Assembly: GCF_055900595.2 (NCBI RefSeq)
Contig: NZ_CM148325.1
Length of the DNA stretch: 64,000 nt
Strand: one strand, 5' to 3'
Part shown: piece after piece, positions 4,203 to 59,082 of the stretch
How positions within the stretch are numbered: the first letter of the stretch is position 1
Layout: each line of letters starts with the position of its first letter
The notes under the pieces: model-generated
The model's database searches: none
What the model saw: only the letters and a program-made list of their open reading frames with translations
What the model was told of the DNA's origin: nothing
Translations under genes and position numbers: made by a program

Positions 4203-5991
4203 AGACTGTCTCATAATCTTTGTCGAACAGGTTGGCTATTTTACCACGAACTGTCAGGTGAGAGGTGACCGGATACGCAACCGCAAGATCCCACAAGCTC
4301 ACACCGCCCATTTTCACGGTTTGATACGGCCAGGAGGAGTAATCCTTATCATAGCGAGTGCCTAAATACTGATAAGTAATACCCCAGTCGAAGTCATACA
4401 ACTGCCAGTCGAGCTGGTATTTCACCTGCTGTTTAGCACGGCGTAACAACGGCGTGTCGGTAATTGCATTGCGCGCATCGACATAATCATAACTCACAGT
4501 ATGCGTCAGTGGTCCGGTATCAAAATTGGCGGTCGCCTCGACGCCCTTAATTCGCGCTTTCCCTTCGTTATAGTATTTCAGGGTGTGATCATCGTAATCG
4601 ATCAAGTCACTGACATCGTTACGATATCCAGAAATACGCCAGTTCACCCCAGCGGTTAAGCCTTCAAACGCGCCTTCCCACTGTTTGCTTTTCTCAGGTT
4701 CCAGATTTGGATTTCCGTAGAAGCCATACAGTTGTCCAAGATTTGGTGCCTTATAAGATGTCCCGTAGGAAGCAATGAAGCGATAGCCTTCGATGAATTC
4801 CCAACCAGCGCTGGTTTGCCAGGTTCCATGACGACCAAACTGTGAGTTATCGTCGCTGCGTGCTGCGCCTTCAAAGGTAAAATCGCCGACTTGTTGCAGC
4901 CCGGTCAGATAGATGCCGGTATTACGTTGATCATATCCATCCTCAACGTAACCTGTACCCGGCGTCGTAGTCTGTTTCTGCCAGTCGACACCCGCACCAA
5001 TACTACCGTGACCAACGATGACATTGTTTGCCCACTGGACGGTGTATTGCTTCATCTCATCAAGCGTCGCCGACGAATCATAACGACCATAATGCGGATC
5101 GTAGTTGTAATCTTTGCTATGGCTATAGCTGGTAATGAGTTGTGATTTAATCAGTTCGCCGTTATAGCGCAGCCCGGCGTCCCAACTTTGGCTATAGAGT
5201 TTACGGGTATCGAGCAACGGTGAGCCGGGAGAATAATATGCGTCATAATTGGTATGGTTATCATAGCCATAGCCGCGCACAAAACCGCTCCAGACATCAG
5301 TAAAGTTATGCTCCAGCGCGCCATAAAGCGTTTTACTTAAAAAACCATCGTTATCTGGCTGAGCTTGCGTTCCGGTATTACCATAGGCGACAACATCATA
5401 ACCATGAGTATGGGCATAATCGCCCAACAGCGTTACCCGTGTCTTATCTCCCAGTAGTTGCTGTGTAGAAACATCATAGTTCTGATAGCTATTGCTTCCC
5501 CACCCTGCTGAAATTTCCGTTCCGGGTTGATCGCGCGTCGTGATGATATTCACGACCCCACCTATTGCATCGGAACCATAAACAGCGGAGCGCGGCCCAC
5601 GGATATATTCAACACGCTGGACAAGCGCAATAGGGAACTGGCTAAGGTCGGCAGAACCACTCACCCCCGCCAGATTCAGGCGTACGCCATCAATTAACAC
5701 CAACACATGACTGGCATTTGTACCGCGAATAAAAATAGAAGAGAGTTGACCTGAACCGCCGTTTTGGGTGATATCGACACCCGGAAGACGGCGCAGCACA
5801 TCATTGACCGAGGTCGACTGCCAGCGGTCGATATCCTGACGCGTCACAACGGTGGTTGGTGCAAGCACAGTGCTGCGCGGCTGTTCAAAACGGTTAGCCG
5901 TAACGACGAGAGTATCCGGGCTGGTATCCTGTGCCCAAGCAGAAAATGCCGTGACGGAACACGCCGTCAGCAGCGAAGCTTTTTTAATCAT
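4147..5991 (-). CDS. btuB: TonB-dependent outer-membrane vitamin B12 transporter
   Basis: ORF 4147..6036; the mature start [20 protein letters not shown] gives 614 aa, the length I recall for BtuB. The TonB box (DTLVVTA) and C-terminal beta-barrel are present. The first 15 codons of the ORF belong to the leader. Confidence 0.93.
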
Positions 5992-45455: not shown

Positions 45456-47690
<2,235 letters not shown>

Positions 47691-47964
47691 TTATAATTGA
47701 ATTAATCCACGGATGCGATAGTTGAGATCTTACATATTGTTGGTTAAAGAGATGTAGATCAAATTGATCGTAATTAAGCTTTTTTGATTATGTCCGAATT
47801 CGGACAAATGCTTTATAAAAAAGGGTTTTAGCTTCCTATTCTTCAAGGAAGGAGGGCGAAAACAAAGCTGACAACCTTATTTTTCCGCCCTCATTTCGAG
47901 GCAGCATTTTGTGCTCTGTTTAAAATTTGTGATCACAGTGTGATTTTCACAAAAGCCACACTAT

Positions 47965-48858
<894 letters not shown>

Positions 48859-48902
48859 TTACCTCATCAATCGCTTGTAGTTATATGTTGTGTTGTGCAC
48901 AT

Positions 48903-48942
48903 CTATCCGTTTAGACGTCCAGATGTAAAGATGAAGGAAAAG
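48903..48942 (-). promoter_or_regulatory. MetJ operator (tandem met boxes) upstream of metF
   Basis: Reverse complement contains TTTACATCTGGACGTCTAAACGGATAGATG with repeated AGACGTCT-like 8-mers. Confidence 0.7.
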
Positions 48943-49237
48943 CTGAAGGGCGTCAACCGAAAAATGACCAATGATGGTGAGGAAAAATCAGGGAAGATGA
49001 AAAAAACTCATCTTAATTAGAGGTAATAAAGAGATTTCTTTATAGCGCAATCAACCTCACTCGTTTTGACTGATATACAGGCAACACAACGGCACCTGTT
49101 CTCATTCGAAAAACAACGCCCTGCCACCAGATGGTGATGCTAAAGCATCTGATTCGGCCTGCGCTCTCGTGTAGGCCGAATACAGAATCTGCGAAATCAA
49201 CTGGTAACAAACAGTAGAGTCAACTCAGTGCGTACTT

Positions 49238-50797
49238 TTATTTAATATCTTTCACGCGCATACCGTTGATCTGTTCATCCGTGATGGTGTTACCCGCTTT
49301 AAAGTAATCAACCACCGCGTGATAAACGTAATAACCGCCCGTCGTATTGCGCGCTTTACCCTCGGTAAACGCGGTAAAACCATCTCCACCATCAGCAAGG
49401 AAACTCTGAGTAGCAATGTGGTAAACCGTCGCATCTTCAATCGGTTTGCCATTCAGCGTCAGCGAGATAACCCGCTGACCAACCGGCTTGCTGCTGTCGT
49501 ACTTCATTTCCAGGCCTTTCGATACCTGTAAAACGCCATTACTTAAACTTGCGCCGTGTTCCATCAAACCGCGTAATTGTTTACCCGTGAGTTCCATCGT
49601 CACCAGTTCGTTGGGGAACGGGAAGGTACTGATGACGCCACCCATCGTAATTGCACCCGCCGGGATCTCATTGCGAATCCCACCAGAGTTGGTTAACGCC
49701 AACTGGGTATTTTTACCCGCCGCTACCAGTAAAGCGTCCGCCGCCAGGTTCCCCAGGGATGCCGATTCACCATAGGCACGTTTTAATTCAACTGGCGATT
49801 GCGCCACCGTTTGCTGCACGACTTCATCCAGCTTTTTATTCCAACTATCAATCACCTGTTTTGTTTGCGCATCGGGCTTCCACTCGTCGGCGTAAAGGGT
49901 TTTAAGCTCGAAGTTTTTCACCGTAAAAGTGTGCGGTTTCTCTTTGTAGTCGAGAACCAGTTTACCCACATCAATCCCACCGCTGTCAGTGGAGAGGATG
50001 AGCGTATTGCCGACTTTAATCGGTTCCGGCGTACCCACATGTGCATGCCCGGTGATCAAAATATCCAGCCCTTTCACCTGACTTGCCGTCTGAATATCTT
50101 TATCCAGTGCGCGGCGCACATCTGTGCCCCCCATACTGGACTGGCGGGCCGGAACACCTTCGTGAATCAGCGCAACGGTCAAATCAACCTTGCCTTTGAG
50201 TTCATCGATATAACGTTGTAGCCATTTAATTTCATCACGCGCCTCAATACCCACTCGCGTTGCCGCAGATACCGTATCATTAAAGGCAAATACACCGTGC
50301 AAACCTATAACACCAATTTTCACGCCGTCTTTTTCAATAATGGTATATGGCTTATCCCAGAATGATTTACTGCTGTTCTGATAAAAAACATTACCCTGCA
50401 CAATCGGGAATTGTGCCTGACTCAACTGTAATAACGTATTGTCCCAGCCGTGATCAAATTCATGATTACCTATAGTGGCCGCATCGAACGGCATGGTATT
50501 CATAATATCGATAATCGCCTTGCCTTTAGTCAGGCTGCTGATATACGGCCCGGTAAAATAGTCACCCGCATCAAAAAACCAGGTCGCTTTGTTTTTAGCT
50601 TTTTCTTGTTTAACAAGCGTAGTGATATTTGCCCAGCCGCCAATATCCCGTTTACCCTCAGCAATCCACGGCACTTTATAGGGCTCTACATGTGCGTGGA
50701 GGTCATTGGTATAAATAATGGTGACATCTTTGGCGCAGGCCCAAAACGGCAGTGTTAATGCGATACCCGCAGCAAGCATTTTAATTTTCATAAACAA
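49238..50797 (-). CDS. secreted 5'-nucleotidase / UDP-sugar hydrolase family metallophosphoesterase (UshA-like), paralog 1
   Basis: 519-aa ORF with a signal peptide ([18 protein letters not shown]), calcineurin-like motifs ([30 protein letters not shown]) and a C-terminal 5'-nucleotidase domain with the FPF nucleobase clamp. Start may be M3 or M7. Confidence 0.8.
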
Positions 50798-50923
50798 TCC
50801 CTTCCAGTGAGATAAAGGATTGCTACATTACGTTCTGAAAGGCTTTTTTATGTGAGAATACTCACATCCAGAGGCAATAACTGTAGGACAAAATCGACGA
50901 CCTTATGAAATCGTTGGTGATAT

Positions 50924-52051
50924 ATGTCAAATCTGTTTGCGATTAATGTCTGTAAAACGTTCGGTTGTCGAAATTTGGGATTGGCCTCATCGGAAGATTA
51001 CAGTTGGCCAGACTATAAACTGGGTTTTCCGGCACTGCACTGCCAGGCATGCGGAAGTTACCCCCCTTTGTTTGATGAACAACAATTTCGTGACTGGTTG
51101 TCAGTTCACATGACTGCGTGTGCCATAGAAACAGGGCATTTTTGTCCATCATGCTATTGTAAAGAAAAGATTTTTTATGGCCACAACCCGCATGGAACAC
51201 AACGCGTTCAATGCCGTTCATGCAAAAAAGTCTGGACTCCGAAACAGCAGCCAGCAAGAGAAATTACGTATCCCCAGTCCATTGAAACCGTTCAACTGTT
51301 CATGCCCTTTCAAGGAGCCAGCGCACTACAAAAGCTCTATGTTTTAGTCAGTCTTGACGCCACTCGTGGCAACATCCTTCATCTCTCCACGAATTATACG
51401 CAACATCAGACAGGAGACAGTCTGCGGTACAGTTACAGAGGCAATACAGAACCAACTGAGCACCATAGCGATATTGTGCAGAGGGTAGATATGCGTGAAG
51501 CGCAATTCTTGCGCCGGAGCCAGTTCGATGAAATTCAGTATGGCAGTGCTGTGCTCAAGCGCAATGGCAAGGGAGCCATACTACGCCCGGTTATCACGGC
51601 TCACGGGCATTTCAGAATACTGAAAATCCGCTTTCCACATGTCAAAACGCATATCATTTCACACGAATGTTTTCTGAGAGGCGCAATTATTACAGCCTGG
51701 GCAGATCAGTTCCGCCAACAACAAGGCGAACTTTGGTTCGTAGAAGAAGAAATCAGCGACCGTAACGCTGATATTCCCTGGCATTTTCAGGGAACGACAT
51801 ACCATGGTTGGTGGCAAAATCAGTGGCAACGCTGGGGGCAGGGGAATAACAGCAAGATGGTCTGCCTGCTCACAGGAGTCTCCTTAGAAAGGGGCGCAAA
51901 TGTTTCTCTGGCAACCAGTCGTTGCTTTATCACATGGCTGACAGACCAACACGACTTTACCCAAAGCGCGTTATTATCCGCAGGTCGCGTAACGAAAATG
52001 CTGACCTCACTGGCGTTAAAATACAATGAATCGCTCACTCCATCTTGTTAG
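50924..52051 (+). CDS. hypothetical Cys-rich protein with a transposase-type zinc-ribbon motif
   Basis: 375-aa ORF. N-terminal Cys pairs (CKTFGC, HCQACG, FCPSCYC, QCRSCKKVW); the segment CPSC...GTQRVQCRSCKKVW resembles the IS1/IS1595 transposase zinc ribbon. No recognisable DDE triad or HTH seen by eye. Confidence 0.5.
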   Translation: MSNLFAINVCKTFGCRNLGLASSEDYSWPDYKLGFPALHCQACGSYPPLFDEQQFRDWLSVHMTACAIETGHFCPSCYCKEKIFYGHNPHGTQRVQCRSCKKVWTPKQQPAREITYPQSIETVQLFMPFQGASALQKLYVLVSLDATRGNILHLSTNYTQHQTGDSLRYSYRGNTEPTEHHSDIVQRVDMREAQFLRRSQFDEIQYGSAVLKRNGKGAILRPVITAHGHFRILKIRFPHVKTHIISHECFLRGAIITAWADQFRQQQGELWFVEEEISDRNADIPWHFQGTTYHGWWQNQWQRWGQGNNSKMVCLLTGVSLERGANVSLATSRCFITWLTDQHDFTQSALLSAGRVTKMLTSLALKYNESLTPSC

Positions 52052-52280
52052 TCAATACACTCGACAAACGACCATAAATTAATGGGATCACTATTTCTCA
52101 TTTAATTAAATATATGAATGTATGACTGAAAAATATAATCACAGTCAATGTTTAATTAATAACATTATTTGTTACTAAGATCACATAATACTTTCCTGAC
52201 CTATGCTTACATAAAAATAAGACACGGAGTTCCTTTTATTTAAATAATTCAACCAATGTAACAACCCCTATCAAGGAGGG

Positions 52281-53834
52281 ATGATGAGAACTGTATTTAC
52301 GACTTTATCAGTCATATTCAGCGTGATGTTTTCTCACAGTATACTAGCTCAGGACGTTACTATTTATTATACGAATGATATTCACGCACATGTCAATCCG
52401 GCAAAAATTCCCGCTGTTGATAAGAACAGACTTGTAGGTGGTATGGCTAATATTGCAGGCATCGTTAATGAAGCGAAGAAAAAAAACAAAGATGTCTTTT
52501 TCTTTGATGCAGGCGACTATTTTACCGGTCCGTATATCAGTACCCTGACCAAAGGTGAAGCTATTATTGATATCATGAACACCATGCCCTTTGATGCGGT
52601 GTCCGTTGGTAATCACGAGTTCGATCACGGCGTGCCCAATATGGTATCTCAGTTATCAAAAGCAAAATTCCCCATTCTGCTGGGAAATATTTACTACACC
52701 GATACAAATAAACCAGTTTGGGATCATCCGTGGACTATTATCGAAAAAGATGGTTTAAAGATTGGTGTGATTGGATTGCATGGTGCATTCGCTTTCTATG
52801 ATACAGTCGCGGCAAAAGCACGTGAAGGCGTAGAAGCCAGAGACGAAATTAAATATTTAAATAAAGCACTTGCAGAATTAAAAGGTAAAGTCGACATTAC
52901 CGTTTTGCTAATTCACGAAGGTGTTCCGGCGCGTCAATCAAGCTTTGGTAGTAAAGATGTGGAGCGGCTACTACAGGCAGATATTGAGACAGCTAAAAAA
53001 GTGAATGGTGTTGATGTCTTAATTACCGGTCACGCACATGTCGGAACACCGCAACCAATAAAAGTTAATAACACATTAATTGTATCTACCGATGCATACG
53101 GCACCGACATCGGAAAACTTGTGCTTGATTACAATCCGAAAACGAAGAAAATTGATAGTTATAATGGTGAGTTAATCACCATCTTCGCAGATCAATTTAA
53201 ACCTGACACCATCGTTCAAAATACTATCGATAAATGGAGTGCAAAGCTTAACAAAATAACACAGGAAGTTGTCGGCCATTCTCCCGTAGTTTTAACACGT
53301 GAGTATGGCAGTTCTTCTTCTACCGGTAACCTTATTCTTGATGCAATGATGGAAAAAACACCAGATGCCATTGCCGGATTTCAAAATAGCGGTGGGATGC
53401 GAGCTGATTTTCCTAAAGGTGATATCACGCTGGGAGATGTTATTAGCACATTCCCCTTTAATAATGACCTCATCGAGATGGATTTGACGGGCCGCGATCT
53501 CAAATCGTTGATGACGCATGCAACCAATCTAACTAACGGTGTGTTACAGGTTTCAAAAAGCGTTGCGGTTGTCTATGACAGCAAAAAACCACTGAACCAA
53601 CGGTTAATCTCTTTCACCATTAACGGCAAACCCGTGGAAGATAATCAAACATATCGTATTGTCACGCACTCCTTTTGTGCCAGTGGTGGTGACGGTTTTG
53701 AAGCATTTTTGAATGGAAAAAATGTGAAGACGATACCGGGAACAACCTCGGCGGAATCTATCATCGATTATTTCAAAAATCATAAACCTGTCACCCCAGA
53801 CTTAACTAAACGAGTAATGGACGTCGCCAAATAA
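52281..53834 (+). CDS. secreted 5'-nucleotidase family metallophosphoesterase (UshA-like), paralog 2
   Basis: 517-aa ORF with a signal peptide (MMRTVFTTLSVIFSVMFSHSILA-QD) and the same catalytic motifs (YTNDIHAH, GDYFTGP, GNHEFD, GHAHVG, TFPF); the most divergent of the three copies. Confidence 0.8.
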   Translation: MMRTVFTTLSVIFSVMFSHSILAQDVTIYYTNDIHAHVNPAKIPAVDKNRLVGGMANIAGIVNEAKKKNKDVFFFDAGDYFTGPYISTLTKGEAIIDIMNTMPFDAVSVGNHEFDHGVPNMVSQLSKAKFPILLGNIYYTDTNKPVWDHPWTIIEKDGLKIGVIGLHGAFAFYDTVAAKAREGVEARDEIKYLNKALAELKGKVDITVLLIHEGVPARQSSFGSKDVERLLQADIETAKKVNGVDVLITGHAHVGTPQPIKVNNTLIVSTDAYGTDIGKLVLDYNPKTKKIDSYNGELITIFADQFKPDTIVQNTIDKWSAKLNKITQEVVGHSPVVLTREYGSSSSTGNLILDAMMEKTPDAIAGFQNSGGMRADFPKGDITLGDVISTFPFNNDLIEMDLTGRDLKSLMTHATNLTNGVLQVSKSVAVVYDSKKPLNQRLISFTINGKPVEDNQTYRIVTHSFCASGGDGFEAFLNGKNVKTIPGTTSAESIIDYFKNHKPVTPDLTKRVMDVAK

Positions 53835-53868
53835 AATATCATTTATCAGTCTATTTATTTAACAAGGA

Positions 53869-55494
53869 ATGCGAATGAAAACAGTGCAGCGTACTTTACT
53901 TGCCGCAACATTGCTGACTATTTTTTCGGTCTCAGCCATGGCGCAGGATGTCACGATTATTTATACCAATGATCTTCACGCTCATGTGGATTCTTATAAA
54001 GTGCCGTATATCGCAGACGGAAAACGCGACATTGGCGGCTTTGCCAATATATCTACTTTAGTAAAACAAGAGAAAGCGAAAAATAAAGCCACCTTTTATT
54101 TTGATGCTGGAGACTATTTCACCGGCCCTTATATCAGCAGTCTGACAAAGGGCGAAGCAATAATTGACATTATGAATACCATGCCTTTTGACGCAGTATC
54201 AATCGGTAATCATGAGTTTGACCATGGCTGGGATAATGCCCTGCGACAATTAAGCAAAGCGAATTTTCCTGTTTTATTGGGCAATGTTTATCATAAAGAG
54301 AGTGAGAAACCCTTCTGGAACAAGCCCTACACCATCCTGGAAAAAGATGGCATCAAGATTGGTATTATTGGGCTACACGGCGTATTTGCATTTAATGATA
54401 CGGTCTCGGAGCTCTCTCTCCAGGGACTCGATAATGACAATAATAACCGCTTTGATAAATCTTCCGAGACCCTTAAGAATCAGGGGATTGAAGCACGTGA
54501 TGAAGTGAAGTATTTGCAGCATTATATCGACGAGTTACGTGATAAGGTTGACCTCACTGTGGCGCTGGTTCATGAAGGCGTTCCGGCGCGTCAGTCCAGC
54601 ATTGGCAATACAGATGTTAGACGCGCTCTTGATAAAGATATTCAAACCGCTAGCAAGGTGAAAGGATTGGATATTCTGATTACCGGGCATGCCCACGTCG
54701 GAACGCCAGAGCCAATCAAAGTCGGCAACACCTTAATCCTTTCAACTGATAGTGGCGGTATCGATATTGGTAAATTAGTCCTTGATGTCAACCCTACAGC
54801 TCGTACCCATAAAATGAAGAGCTTTGAGCTGAAAACAGTTTATGCCGATGAATGGATACCCGATCCAACGACACAAAAAGTTATCAATGGCTGGAATAAA
54901 AAACTGGCGGATATTGTACGCCAACCAGTGGGTGAATCATCGATTGCATTAACTCGCGCCTATGGTGAGTCATCGCAACTAGGCAACCTGTTTACCGATG
55001 CAATGCTTGTCGCTGCTCCGACTGCACAGATTGCATTGATAAACTCCGGCAGCTTACGTGCGGATATAAATGCAGGCACGATTACCTTTGGCGACATTAC
55101 CAGTACATTCCCCTTCAAGAATGAACTTACTGAAATGGATCTCAGCGGTAAGGATCTGCGTAACCTACTGGAACACGGGGCATCGCTTACCAATGGCATC
55201 CTGCAAATGTCAAAAGGCGCAGAAATGCGCTATACCCCGCAGAAACCAGTAGGTCAGCGCATAGTATCTTTTAAAATTAATGGTGAAGAGATCGTTGATA
55301 CGAATATTTACCATGTTGCAACAACGACTTTCCTTGCACTGGGGGGCGATGGTTTTCTGGCATTCAAAGAAGGGAAAAATGTTCAGGTCCGCGCCGGAAA
55401 TAACATGTCCGATGTCGTGATCGATTATTTGAAGAAAGGCCACAAGATTACGCCTGCACAGGTAAATGAAATGCGGGTGGACGTTAGCAAATAA
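53869..55494 (+). CDS. secreted 5'-nucleotidase family metallophosphoesterase (UshA-like), paralog 3
   Basis: 541-aa ORF with a signal peptide (...FSVSAMA-QD) and the same motifs; very similar to paralog 1 (roughly three-quarters identical by eye) but with an extra roughly 24-aa Asn/Asp-rich insertion (ELSLQGLDNDNNNRFDKSSETLKNQG). Confidence 0.8.
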   Translation: MRMKTVQRTLLAATLLTIFSVSAMAQDVTIIYTNDLHAHVDSYKVPYIADGKRDIGGFANISTLVKQEKAKNKATFYFDAGDYFTGPYISSLTKGEAIIDIMNTMPFDAVSIGNHEFDHGWDNALRQLSKANFPVLLGNVYHKESEKPFWNKPYTILEKDGIKIGIIGLHGVFAFNDTVSELSLQGLDNDNNNRFDKSSETLKNQGIEARDEVKYLQHYIDELRDKVDLTVALVHEGVPARQSSIGNTDVRRALDKDIQTASKVKGLDILITGHAHVGTPEPIKVGNTLILSTDSGGIDIGKLVLDVNPTARTHKMKSFELKTVYADEWIPDPTTQKVINGWNKKLADIVRQPVGESSIALTRAYGESSQLGNLFTDAMLVAAPTAQIALINSGSLRADINAGTITFGDITSTFPFKNELTEMDLSGKDLRNLLEHGASLTNGILQMSKGAEMRYTPQKPVGQRIVSFKINGEEIVDTNIYHVATTTFLALGGDGFLAFKEGKNVQVRAGNNMSDVVIDYLKKGHKITPAQVNEMRVDVSK

Positions 55495-55504
55495 TAAAAA
55501 AATT

Positions 55505-55540
55505 ATAATGCCATTCATTCACTGAATGGCATTATTTTTC
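55505..55540 (+). terminator. intrinsic terminator after nucleotidase paralog 3
   Basis: Hairpin AATGCCATTCA-TTCAC-TGAATGGCATT followed by ATTTTTC. Confidence 0.7.
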
Positions 55541-55572
55541 TCTAAATCAACAATAAATAATGAGATATATTT

Positions 55573-56433
55573 ATGTGTATAAAAAAGCACGGGATAGCTT
55601 TATCGATTCTATTAATACCTTGCATTGGAAACGCTCAGGAAATTAAAAGTGAGGAAGGCTGGTTACATCAAAGCTTGAATGTCATTGGTCGCACAGACTC
55701 TCGCTTTGGCCCAAGGCTGACTAACGACCTCTACCCTGAATATACTGTAGCAGGAAGAAAAGACTGGTTTGATTTTTATGGTTATGTTGATCTACCAAAA
55801 TTCTTTGGCGTCGGCAGTCACTATGATGTTGGGATCTGGGATGAGGGCTCACCACTATTTACGGAAATAGAACCTCGGTTTTCCATTGACAAATTGACCG
55901 GATTAAATCTTGCGTTCGGCCCTTTTAAAGAATGGTTCATTGCAAACAACTATGTCTATGATATGGGTGACAACCAGTCATCCCGGCAAAGTACATGGTA
56001 TATGGGGCTTGGTACAGATATCGACACGGGTCTACCAATTAAGCTTTCTGCCAATATATACGCCAAGTATCAGTGGCAAAACTATGGTGCCGCTAATGAA
56101 AATGAATGGGACGGATATCGATTCAAAATAAAATATAGCATTCCTCTTACCCATTTATTCGGAGGGCGATTGGTATACAATAGTTTTACTAACTTTGATT
56201 TTGGCTCCGATCTTGCGGACAAATCACACAATAATAAACGAACCAGTAATGCTATTGCTTCAAGCCATATCCTTTCCCTGCTATATGAACACTGGAAATT
56301 TGCATTTACACTACGTTATTTTCACAACGGTGGACAATGGAATGCTGGGGAGAAAGTTAACTTCGGAGATGGTCCATTTGAATTAAAAAACACAGGATGG
56401 GGAACCTATACTACTATTGGTTATCAATTTTAA
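55573..56433 (+). CDS. Tsx-family outer-membrane nucleoside-specific channel (paralog of tsx)
   Basis: 286-aa ORF with a signal peptide ([23 protein letters not shown]). Long blocks match E. coli Tsx as I recall it ([83 protein letters not shown]), and the C-terminal aromatic residue is typical of beta-barrels. Confidence 0.85.
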
Positions 56434-56614
56434 ATCAGGTGATGTTTTAGATATTTTTACTTAATGCCATTTTGTAATTGTCATAAATAACTTCACCATT
56501 CACACTGTGAATTCATCGCTCAACACAAAAGCCCCCTTATTACCGGGGCACTGACCAAAGGCAAAATGACAATCAATCACCACCTCCGCAGGAGGTGGTT
56601 TAGAGGTGACAACA

Positions 56615-56641
56615 AAAGCTGGCAACTGCCAGCTTTTGTTC
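56615..56641. terminator. bidirectional intrinsic terminator downstream of metL
   Basis: Perfect palindrome AACAAAAGCTGGCA-ACT-GCCAGCTTTTGTT immediately 3' of the metL stop; a second hairpin ACCACCTCC-GCA-GGAGGTGGT lies at 56578..56598. Confidence 0.75.
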
Positions 56642-56649
56642 AATAATCA

Positions 56650-59082
56650 CTACAACAACTGCGCCAGACGGTTAATATCCGACTGAATCGCCCCAGCGGT
56701 GACGTCGCGCCCTGCACCTGGCCCGCGGATCACCAGCGGGTTGTCGCGATACCAGCGGCTTTCGATGGCAAAGACGTTATCGCACGGTAGTAGTGATGCC
56801 AGCGGATGGTCTTCACGCACCGCTTCCACGCCCACTCGCGCTTTGCCGTTGGCATCGAAACGCGCCACGTAGCGCAACACCAGCCCCATTTCACGGGCCG
56901 CTTCCAACCGTTGTACCATCTGCTCATTAAGTTCATCGCCATTTTCAAAGAAATGGTCGATGCTTCCACCTTCGCAATGGGTTGGCACCAGTGATTCAAC
57001 ACGCACCTGGTCCGGTTCAATGTTGTAACCCGCTTCACGCGCCAGAATCACCAGCTTGCGCATCACATCTTTGCCGGAGAGGTCATCACGCGGGTCAGGT
57101 TCAGTTAAGCCCTGCTGCCACGCCTGATCCACCAGCTCAGTAAACGGCACGCTACCGTCGAATTGCAGGAACAGCCAGGAGAGCGTGCCGGAGAAGATCC
57201 CGCTGATCGACAAAATAGTGTCGCCGCTGTCGATCAGATCGCGCACGGTATGGTTGATCGGCAAACCTGCGCCGACGGTGGCGTTGTATAGCCAGTGACG
57301 CCCGGTTTTTTCGAACGCGTCGTGGATCTGGCGATATTTATTGCTGTCGCTCGCTCCCGCCAGTTTGTTGGCACTGATGACGTGGAAACCGTGGCTGGCG
57401 AAATCGAGATACTGATCAGCAAGCTGCTGGCTGGCAGTAACGTCCAGCACAACTAAATCATCATACGGATGGGCACGCATCCACAGGAATAGCGACTCTT
57501 CATCCTGTTCGACGGCTTCATCATTAAAGAAGGCTAGCGCACGGCTGGCGTCCAGCCCGTCATAGCTCAACAGGCTGCGACGGCTGTCCACCACGCCTGC
57601 CAGCACAAATTCAAAGCCGGTGCGCGCCGAGAGCGTGCTCTGCTCACGGGCGAACAGTTCCAGCCAGCGGGAACCGATATTGCCCTTACCGAACAATACC
57701 AGGCCGATGCGTTTTTCTGCGCGGAAGACGGACTGATGCAGCCCCTGAATCAGGCTTTCGGTCGGGCCGGTGCGCAGTACTGCCACCAGGCTGATGCCGT
57801 CATCGGACTGCCAGGTAAACTCGACCGGCTGGCCTTTCAGTTGCTGCCAGAAGCGGTGGCAATGCAGCGGGTTACGGGTGACGCCCGCCCCAACCATCGC
57901 CACCAGCGCCAGCCCCTGACGCAGACGCAGTTCGCCGGGTAATCCTGCTTCGTCGAGGATTTTCAGCGCACTGTCGGCCACTTCCGAGGTGTAGCAAAAT
58001 TGCAGCAACTGGCGATCGTTATGCACGCCAACTGCCAGTGGGCGCACCTGAGCACGTTTCAGGATTTGGTCGATCTCTTTATGCGCCAGTTTAAAATCCT
58101 GACTGGCGGGCACCTGAAACTCAATCAAACAGACATCATCGTGGCTGGTGACAATACGCGCGCCAGTACCTGAGGCCAGCACGCGTTCAATGCGCGTGGA
58201 ACCTTGATCCGGCGTGTAGCTACAGCGCAGCTGCAGGTCGATTTCGCTGCCAGAAACTGGCTGTAAAGTACGGGCGTGAAGAACGGGGGCCGCCAGACGC
58301 GCCAGTTCGCTGGCTTCATCCAGACGCAGCAACGGCAGCAGGCAGGCGTCTTTCACTTTACGCGGGTCGGCGCTATATACCCCGGCGACATCGCTCCAGA
58401 TGGTTACGCGGGAAACTCCCGCCAGCGCACCGATTTGTGTCGCGGAATAGTCGGAACCGTTACGCCCCAGCAGCACCGTTTCACCGGCGTTGTTGCGGCT
58501 GATAAATCCGGTCACCACCAGGCGTTTGCCCGGATGTTGCACCAGTAGTTGTTGCAGCAATGGGTACGAAAGGCCTTCATCAACCTGTGGTTGCGCGGCA
58601 CGTTCAGCGCGTAAAAACTCGCGGGCATCAAGCCAGGCCGCAGGCAATCCTTGTTGATTAAGCACCGCAGACATTAAGCGTGCCGACCACACTTCCCCGT
58701 GGCCCACCACTTCTGCATACACCGCATCATTAATACCGCTGTCGAGCAGCGCCGCGAGGCGTTCCAGATCGCTGACAAAGGCGCTAATGAGGCTATCGGC
58801 TTCTTCGGCGGGTAGCAGGCCGCTAATCAGATCGCACTGATAGCGACGCAGCGTTTGTTGAACCTGATGCGCAGAGAGACGATCGGCCTGGCTTAGTTTC
58901 AACCAGTTAATCAACTGGTTAGTGGTGCTACCGGCGGCGGAAACCACCATCATATCGTCAGGCTGAGAGTACTCCGCCATAATGCCCGCGACACGCAAAT
59001 AACACTTCACATCAGCCAGACTACTGCCACCAAATTTATGCAGTTGACGACCTTTCGCCCCTGCCTGCGCAATCACACTCAT
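56650..59082 (-). CDS. metL: bifunctional aspartokinase II / homoserine dehydrogenase II
   Basis: 810-aa ORF (MSVIAQAGAKGRQLHKFGGSSLADVKCYLRVAGIMAEY...) with an N-terminal aspartokinase domain and a C-terminal homoserine dehydrogenase domain. Confidence 0.95.
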   Translation of the reverse strand: MSVIAQAGAKGRQLHKFGGSSLADVKCYLRVAGIMAEYSQPDDMMVVSAAGSTTNQLINWLKLSQADRLSAHQVQQTLRRYQCDLISGLLPAEEADSLISAFVSDLERLAALLDSGINDAVYAEVVGHGEVWSARLMSAVLNQQGLPAAWLDAREFLRAERAAQPQVDEGLSYPLLQQLLVQHPGKRLVVTGFISRNNAGETVLLGRNGSDYSATQIGALAGVSRVTIWSDVAGVYSADPRKVKDACLLPLLRLDEASELARLAAPVLHARTLQPVSGSEIDLQLRCSYTPDQGSTRIERVLASGTGARIVTSHDDVCLIEFQVPASQDFKLAHKEIDQILKRAQVRPLAVGVHNDRQLLQFCYTSEVADSALKILDEAGLPGELRLRQGLALVAMVGAGVTRNPLHCHRFWQQLKGQPVEFTWQSDDGISLVAVLRTGPTESLIQGLHQSVFRAEKRIGLVLFGKGNIGSRWLELFAREQSTLSARTGFEFVLAGVVDSRRSLLSYDGLDASRALAFFNDEAVEQDEESLFLWMRAHPYDDLVVLDVTASQQLADQYLDFASHGFHVISANKLAGASDSNKYRQIHDAFEKTGRHWLYNATVGAGLPINHTVRDLIDSGDTILSISGIFSGTLSWLFLQFDGSVPFTELVDQAWQQGLTEPDPRDDLSGKDVMRKLVILAREAGYNIEPDQVRVESLVPTHCEGGSIDHFFENGDELNEQMVQRLEAAREMGLVLRYVARFDANGKARVGVEAVREDHPLASLLPCDNVFAIESRWYRDNPLVIRGPGAGRDVTAGAIQSDINRLAQLL

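Follow-up and report, generated by a model that had tools for sequence, protein, structure and literature searches.

What does it mean that two of three neighboring 5'-nucleotidase genes lie on opposite strands of an Escherichia coli chromosome? Either the two are recent copies through which the DNA between them can be inverted, or they are old paralogs held in one arrangement. We address this question in a 64 kb stretch of E. coli chromosome (64,000 nucleotides from contig NZ_CM148325.1 of the RefSeq assembly GCF_055900595.2), which we call the window, and within it in the region between metF and metL. An initial annotation of this DNA had reported three intact paralogous nucleotidase genes there, and all three open reading frames (ORFs) are indeed present. 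We name them P1 (49238..50791, minus strand, with a RefSeq-style ATG at 50791 in an ORF that extends to 50797), P2 (52284..53834, plus strand, ORF opening at 52281) and P3 (53875..55494, plus strand, ORF opening at 53869). The order of the cluster is P1 on the minus strand, followed on the plus strand by a Cys-rich gene, P2, P3 and a gene for a second Tsx channel. With a probability of about 0.8, we read the locus as an evolutionarily old, strain-variable cluster of fixed orientation that scavenges external nucleotides, in which the likeness of the nucleotidases to one another is ordinary paralogy kept by constraint at the protein level.

Age and orientation of the nucleotidase paralogs

The initial annotation correctly placed P1 and P3 closer to each other than to P2. 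In pairwise alignments, P1 and P3 are 68.4% identical in amino acids and 66.5% in nucleotides, versus 55.8% and 58.4% for P1 and P2, and 56.3% and 58.5% for P2 and P3. These values are far from the near-identity that had been attributed to P1 and P3. Identity at third codon positions is 41% for P1 and P3 (35-41% across the paralog pairs), synonymous divergence (dS) between the paralogs is saturated (above 2 or undefined), and nonsynonymous divergence (dN) is 0.24 for P1 and P3 and 0.38-0.39 for the pairs that include P2. An estimate by eye of roughly 80% nucleotide identity comes close in a few 150-nucleotide (nt) sliding windows (77-79%), all of them in parts of the N-terminal domain, and does not carry over to the C-terminal third, where P1 and P3 are at 56-61%. 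Even in windows with 88-98% protein identity, only 44-46% of the third codon positions agree. The resemblance of P1 and P3 is thus one of protein-level constraint, and not of recent duplication or gene conversion.

The same applies to the inverted repeats of about 1.5 kb that had been described here. P1 and P3 do lie in opposite orientations around the Cys-rich gene and P2, but the best arms in an ungapped repeat search are much shorter than the genes: one of 461 nt (50268..50728, partner 53947-54407) that is 76% complementary and coincides with the sequence for the N-terminal catalytic domains of the two proteins, and one of 303 nt (49950..50252, partner 54483-54785) that is 75% complementary. 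The longest exact run common to P1 and P3 is 17 nt. The repeats are two diverged homologous genes on opposite strands.

A neighbor-joining tree of 21 nucleotidases from cluster loci has three clades, which we name types A, B and C and which include P1, P2 and P3, respectively. Type A, at 88-97% amino acid identity, is found in a short E. coli form of the cluster (described below), in Citrobacter freundii, C. enshiensis, Pseudocitrobacter and Enterobacter spp., and in Escherichia albertii. Type B is found in C. enshiensis (92%), Enterobacter spp. and Escherichia albertii, and includes a second subclade at 68-73%. Type C, at 85-87%, is found in C. enshiensis, Escherichia albertii, Enterobacter asburiae and Enterobacter chuandaensis. 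Orthologs of each type are more alike across genera (85-97% in amino acids) than the paralogs are to one another (53-71%, with saturated dS), so the duplications are older than these genera of Enterobacteriaceae. The identity of P3 to the type-A proteins is 66-71% throughout, for the P1 of its own genome as for those of other genera, and this equal distance indicates that there has been no concerted evolution. We considered gene conversion between P1 and P3 as a separate candidate and rejected it, because their most similar windows have no excess at synonymous sites and because of the equal distances to foreign type-A genes.

Since dS between the paralogs is saturated, dN/dS cannot be computed for them, and we used ortholog comparisons instead. 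The ortholog dN/dS values are 0.03-0.15 for types A, B and C and for the Tsx gene, indicating purifying selection on each. In C. enshiensis, the same gene order as in the window is found at the same metF-metL locus, and the cluster genes of E. coli and C. enshiensis differ by a dS of 1.0-1.6, with 1.24 for metF. By this similarity the cluster may be as old at the metF-metL site as the split between Escherichia and Citrobacter, despite its lower GC content. In Enterobacter asburiae, E. chuandaensis, E. hormaechei and Escherichia albertii, the genes run co-directionally as A-B-(Tsx)-(C), divergent from the Cys-rich gene. The Enterobacter order is A-B-Tsx-C, compared to B-C-Tsx in the window. In Escherichia albertii, four nucleotidase paralogs and Tsx are all on one strand, elsewhere in the chromosome.

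Can the segment between P1 and P3 be inverted? The arrangement had been presented as the geometry needed for recombinational inversion, with the prospect of finding the segment 50798-53868 in both orientations in related genomes. We looked at 5426 complete E. coli genomes, taking a query as present when at least 80% of it is covered. The whole 7.9-kb region is collinear, in one single-strand place, in 658 of the 5426. The internal segment 50798-53868 is covered to at least 80% in exactly 658 genomes, and the other 1183 matches to it cover only about its first 18-35%. P3 occupies one unbroken place (at least 80% of the query) in 658/658 genomes. An inversion by crossover between P1 and P3 would split P3 and prevent 80% collinear coverage, so the unbroken P3 means that no inversion is seen. 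The orientation is one and fixed in the 658 E. coli genomes and in C. enshiensis, and the rearranged orders of Enterobacter and Escherichia albertii are not the product expected from an inversion between P1 and P3. The inversion model is refuted at the resolution of complete genomes.

The DNA itself is also a poor substrate. In E. coli, exchange by RecA/RecBCD has a minimal efficient processing segment of about 23-27 bp of perfect identity, and once sequences diverge by 10-20%, RecA-dependent exchange becomes rarer by orders of magnitude. With a longest run of 17 nt, below that minimum, and 33% divergence, the two copies are too different to drive inversion of the DNA between them. No ORF for a serine or tyrosine recombinase was found in 46000-59000, where the Cys-rich protein has the sole recombinase-like fold and appears to be without a conserved DDE triad.

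Two rival explanations can be weighed against these results. One has P1 and P3 recombining as inverted repeats and flipping the Cys-rich gene together with P2, which would make a switch or produce hybrid genes. Its strengths are the suitable orientation and the arms of 300-460 nt at 75-76% identity, and it is met by the low overall identity and short exact runs just described, by 0/658 genomes that are inverted or have a split P3, by the shared orientation of C. enshiensis, by the lack of an invertase gene, and by the distance of P3 to the P1 beside it, which is no smaller than that to type-A genes from elsewhere. We give this explanation practically no credence. Known invertible segments, such as the fim switch, Hin/Gin, the shufflons and the inversions between rRNA operons or insertion sequences (IS), have in common with this locus a segment between inverted homologous sequences; they differ in that their repeats are approximately 100% identical, compared to 66% here, where there is no invertase and one orientation in 658 genomes. 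The other explanation is a recent tandem or inverted duplication in situ in E. coli, followed by rapid divergence. That the three genes are adjacent would fit it, but each paralog has its own orthologs in Citrobacter, Enterobacter, Escherichia albertii and Pseudocitrobacter, at identities well above those of the saturated paralog pairs, and a recent origin is in our judgment highly improbable. Old paralogy in a fixed orientation, the reading that we prefer, also accounts for the strand of P1: it lies opposite to P3 because type-A genes and the Cys-rich gene are invariably transcribed away from each other, from either side of a control region that is conserved.

Nucleotidase features, the second Tsx channel and CRP-like sites

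Reading the sequences of P1, P2 and P3, we find Sec signal peptides with AXA-type cleavage sites in all three (in P1, cleavage falls just before KDV), from which a periplasmic location is predicted. Precomputed Pfam results list PF00149 (Metallophos) and PF02872 (5_nucleotid_C) for orthologs of types A, B and C, and also for the 99%-identical cluster representatives of P3, and P1 and P2 have full-length alignments to the 2Z1A, CD73 and UshA structures. The three proteins thereby have the two domains of the UshA-CD73 superfamily, an N-terminal calcineurin-like metallophosphoesterase domain and a C-terminal substrate-binding domain. All of P1, P2 and P3 keep the UshA residues D41, H43, D84, N116, H117, D120, H217, H252, R410, F429, F498 and D504. 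This set comprises the dimetal ligands (D41/H43/D84/N116/H217/H252), the catalytic dyad (H117/D120) and two base-stacking Phe residues. UshA Q254 is replaced by His in all three. The architecture, the dimetal site, the His-Asp dyad, the Phe pair and a periplasmic or extracellular location (predicted in the case of P1-P3) are common to UshA, CD73 and the three paralogs. Identity to UshA is just 25-27%, and P1-P3 are best classified, from their sequences, as a separate subfamily that is related to UshA and CD73 and consists of orthologs of neither.

One member of the subfamily has a structure. The PDB entries 3IVD/3IVE, named "Nucleotidase", are an ortholog of P1, which is near-identical to 3ivd_A (1105 bits, residues 18-516); P2 matches 3IVD with 635 bits. 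We take 3IVD/3IVE to be c4898 of E. coli CFT073, a putative 5'-nucleotidase whose structure was determined by a structural-genomics center with uridine or cytidine bound. A literature search on c4898, 3IVD and the neighboring CFT073 locus tags returned nothing relevant and no biochemical paper. Type C differs from the other two types by a clade-specific insert of about 22 amino acids (…LSLQGLDNDNNNRFDKSSETLKN…), found in P3 (54390-54460, plus strand, residues ~176-198) and in all type-C orthologs and absent from types A and B. As the initial annotation proposed, the retention of three copies would be consistent with diversified specificity rather than redundancy.

The last gene of the cluster (55573..56433, plus strand) encodes a second Tsx-family outer-membrane nucleoside channel. 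It scores 491.8 bits with the NCBIfam model PRK15106 (cut-off 311), and in BLASTP it is 65% identical in amino acids to K-12 Tsx over residues 30-286, ending in ...GYQF with a C-terminal Phe. With a score above the cut-off, a full-length barrel and the C-terminal Phe, we predict a genuine Tsx-type channel. The gene is annotated as partial in strain SMS-3-5, yet its DNA there is 100% identical to the apparently intact 286-amino-acid gene of the window, and the partial annotation is probably an artefact. Between P3 and the Tsx gene there is a hairpin with a perfect 13-bp stem and T runs on both strands (55505..55535). It is terminator- or attenuator-like, and may act bidirectionally and separate two transcription units.

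The 132 bp that separate P1 from the Cys-rich gene (50792..50923) are a strongly conserved control region, kept in nine loci from six genera, in all of which the Cys-rich gene is divergent from the type-A gene. At 50851-50866, it has a zero-mismatch instance of the CRP consensus TGTGA-N6-TCACA, TGTGAGAATACTCACA, which is the only zero-mismatch CRP match in the 64-kb window, is kept in the nine aligned loci, and sits about 65-70 bp from the start codons of both P1 and the Cys-rich gene. A second CRP-like site, TGTTACTAAGATCACA, with one mismatch (52170..52185), is 96 bp upstream of P2, within the sole block of the spacer between the Cys-rich gene and P2 that is conserved with C. enshiensis. The control region has two other conserved features. 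An inverted repeat, ATCgACGAcc ... ATCGTTGG (~50886-50915), conserved across genera, is directly upstream of the start codon of the Cys-rich gene and its likely Shine-Dalgarno sequence, and could be an operator or a hairpin in the 5' untranslated region. On the P1 side there is a second invariant block, TTACGTTCTGAAAG.

Put together, these features suggest how the cluster could work. The three anciently diverged, Sec-exported enzymes of the 5'-nucleotidase family would presumably dephosphorylate nucleotides in the periplasm. The second Tsx-type channel would presumably pass nucleosides or related compounds across the outer membrane, and expression of the cluster would probably be under cAMP-CRP control, like that of other nucleoside-catabolic genes. 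In having a Tsx barrel and CRP consensus sites in its promoters, the cluster resembles the CRP-controlled nucleoside regulon (tsx, deo, udp, cdd, nupC, nupG); it differs in that its Tsx is a second, strain-variable copy linked to nucleotidases, and no CytR or DeoR operators were identified.

The Cys-rich gene

The Cys-rich gene (50924..52051, plus strand) encodes a 375-amino-acid cytoplasmic protein with N-terminal Cys clusters, an InsA-type Zn ribbon and a DDE-like RNase H fold. Sequence models say little about it. Pfam gives only weak matches to InsA-type Zn ribbons, significant in 8 of 51 family members, the IS1 transposase model scores 19.6 bits (cut-off 100), and PHROGs gives only a weak match to a transposase Zn ribbon. 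In a PDB sequence profile search, the matches are compositional C2H2 zinc fingers only. The fold of the protein is RNase H-like of the DDE kind, as in transposases and integrases. Across the 51 family members, an acidic residue is found at E248 in all 51, at D202 in 44 and at D145 in 38, and the canonical D1 and D2 positions would correspond to the non-acidic T122 and A226. The family has about 120 representatives, and relatives of the protein are annotated as "IS1 family transposase" or as "inactivated derivatives".

The gene does not behave as a mobile element does. Each of 1841 E. coli genomes has it once, and wherever the location was inspected the site is the same. A repeat search gave no inverted repeats flanking the gene other than the paralog arms. 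Its dN/dS of 0.08-0.27 indicates purifying selection. The comparison to IS1 InsA/InsAB' and its domesticated derivatives, with which it shares an InsA-type Zn ribbon followed by an RNase H-like DDE fold, is thus one of likeness in domains and difference in other respects: here the gene is single-copy and syntenic, is without terminal inverted repeats that we could find, and has one invariant acidic position.

The distant relatives of the Cys-rich protein, with 25-37% identity, have readable neighborhoods at six loci, and in 6/6 they adjoin genes for nucleosides or nucleotides. In Providencia rettgeri and in Photobacterium rosenbergii, the neighbor is a 5'-nucleotidase, and in Gilliamella the neighbors are deoB, deoD and a NupG-type permease. 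In the three other loci, the neighbors are a 515-amino-acid 5'-nucleotidase (P0260), a porin, a class-B acid phosphatase and a class-II phosphodiesterase (P0262), and a NupC-type transporter with a nucleoside phosphorylase (P0263). The gene sets beside family members are not homologous to one another and have only this theme in common, and they are spread over Enterobacterales, Gilliamella and Photobacterium. The regulatory regions of these relatives have 5 CRP-like sites (at most one mismatch) in about 2.3 kb, compared to about one per 13 kb in the window. From this, we tentatively propose, at somewhat less than even odds, a gammaproteobacterial family derived from an IS1-like transposase, with a Zn ribbon and a degenerate DDE domain, that may have been domesticated as a regulator or as a DNA- or RNA-binding component of loci for nucleoside and nucleotide scavenging. 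A domesticated IS1-like regulator is the reading that asks for the fewest assumptions, with the Cys-rich protein a candidate by guilt by association.

It could be argued that the gene is instead a dead insertion-sequence remnant, functionally unrelated to the nucleotidases. The Zn ribbon of the IS1/InsA kind, the DDE-type fold and an acidic triad that appears not to be conserved are what such a remnant would have. A dead gene is hard to reconcile with an intact ORF evolving at the low dN/dS given above, with a single syntenic copy in the 1841 genomes, with its divergent placement relative to type A at all nine loci, from six genera, and with the nucleoside or nucleotide neighbors of relatives as distant as these. 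We consider a dead remnant unlikely.

Distribution of the cluster and its possible role

The metF (47965-48855) and metL (56650-59082) ORFs that flank the cluster are both on the minus strand, with katG further to the left of metF. Compared by BLAST to the 348-bp metL-metF spacer of K-12, matches of the window stop at 49005 and resume at 56651, which delimits an accessory cluster of 7.6 kb (49006..56650) in place of about 200 bp of unrelated K-12 sequence. A recent horizontal insertion marked by att-like direct repeats was considered and rejected, as no direct repeats were seen at the cluster borders. We found no Rfam RNA family within 48700-56800, and no match of the PADLOC defense-system models to P1, the Cys-rich protein or the Tsx paralog. 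By megablast, several complete E. coli genomes match 48800-56700 at 100%. Their annotations include three "bifunctional metallophosphatase/5'-nucleotidase" genes, a hypothetical or "cytoplasmic" protein, and a "nucleoside-specific channel-forming protein Tsx".

The site has three states in E. coli: without a cluster, as in K-12, with a short form, or with a long form. The short form, with no genes other than that of type A and the Cys-rich one, lies at the metF-metL site as well and is present in 1183 of the complete E. coli genomes (~22%). It also occurs at that site in Citrobacter and Pseudocitrobacter. The long form, that of the window, is present in 658 (~12%), including E2348/69, LF82, ATCC 25922 and SMS-3-5, and it comes in two allele groups, with 97 genomes at least 99% identical to the window and 561 genomes at 95-99%; E2348/69, LF82 and ATCC 25922 belong to the latter. 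When the long E. coli form is compared to the short one, nucleotide identity is about 92% for P1 and about 75% for the Cys-rich gene (72% in amino acids). This uneven divergence, of about 8% for P1 and about 25% for the Cys-rich gene, points to old haplotypes or to allelic replacement. Among the Enterobacter clusters, three (L006, L011 and L012) adjoin an arylsulfotransferase gene, and L011 and L012 also have a neighboring gene with Cys motifs suggestive of a radical-SAM/SPASM maturase.

The long form has been published as the genomic region GR31 (metL..metF) of the avian pathogenic E. coli (APEC) strain BEN2908, common to other extraintestinal pathogenic E. coli (ExPEC) strains, with three UshA-like ORFs of 1554, 1551 and 1620 bp and a Tsx-like ORF of 861 bp, and has been interpreted as a system that degrades and transports nucleosides (PMC12928451). 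The nucleotidase triplet is therefore already known at a descriptive level. In the available portions of that account (PMC12928451), there is no mention of the Cys-rich gene, of the ages of the paralogs, of their orientation, of the CRP sites or of the short form.

Several observations weigh against reading the locus as an old nucleotide-scavenging cluster. The GC content is 40-48% in the cluster compared to 52-58% in the flanks, which suggests a foreign origin, although the dS relative to Citrobacter resembles that of metF. All three nucleotidases fall below the NCBIfam cut-offs for the characterized enzymes, with 150-165 bits for UshA (cut-off 600), 122-132 for NadN (cut-off 436) and 81-102 for CpdB (cut-off 486), and their substrates could differ from the classical 5'-nucleotides. 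P3 is a pseudogene with an internal stop in strain MS 200-1, so that the triplet is not always intact and its retention is not universal. Finally, the logic of the pairing is incomplete, as periplasmic nucleotidases have no obvious need for an outer-membrane nucleoside channel.

The enzymes might instead act mainly on host signaling nucleotides, converting extracellular ATP/AMP to adenosine or acting on NAD or cyclic nucleotides, with the cluster contributing to fitness or virulence in B2/F strains of the ExPEC type. The superfamily does include CD73, S. aureus AdsA and NadN, and the long cluster is found in E2348/69, LF82, ATCC 25922 and APEC BEN2908. We nevertheless regard such a role as unlikely: environmental Enterobacter and Citrobacter have the cluster as well, the presence of a CRP site and of a Tsx partner suggests catabolism, and beyond the Sec signal peptide we see no signal for anchoring or secretion.

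As an old scavenging cluster, the locus has significance at three levels. It is a clean negative example, in which inverted "repeats" as long as a gene do not serve for recombination when they are only about 66% identical. It offers a natural, well-defined collection of three or four old paralogs of the nucleotidase together with a second Tsx, which invites work on substrate specificity and on the use of nucleotides in the gut and in extraintestinal sites. And compared to a nucleotidase triplet that is already published and has one solved structure, the Cys-rich family is the more interesting lead: if its proposed origin and role are true, a transposase-derived family found beside nucleoside and nucleotide genes would be a candidate for a new type of bacterial regulator.

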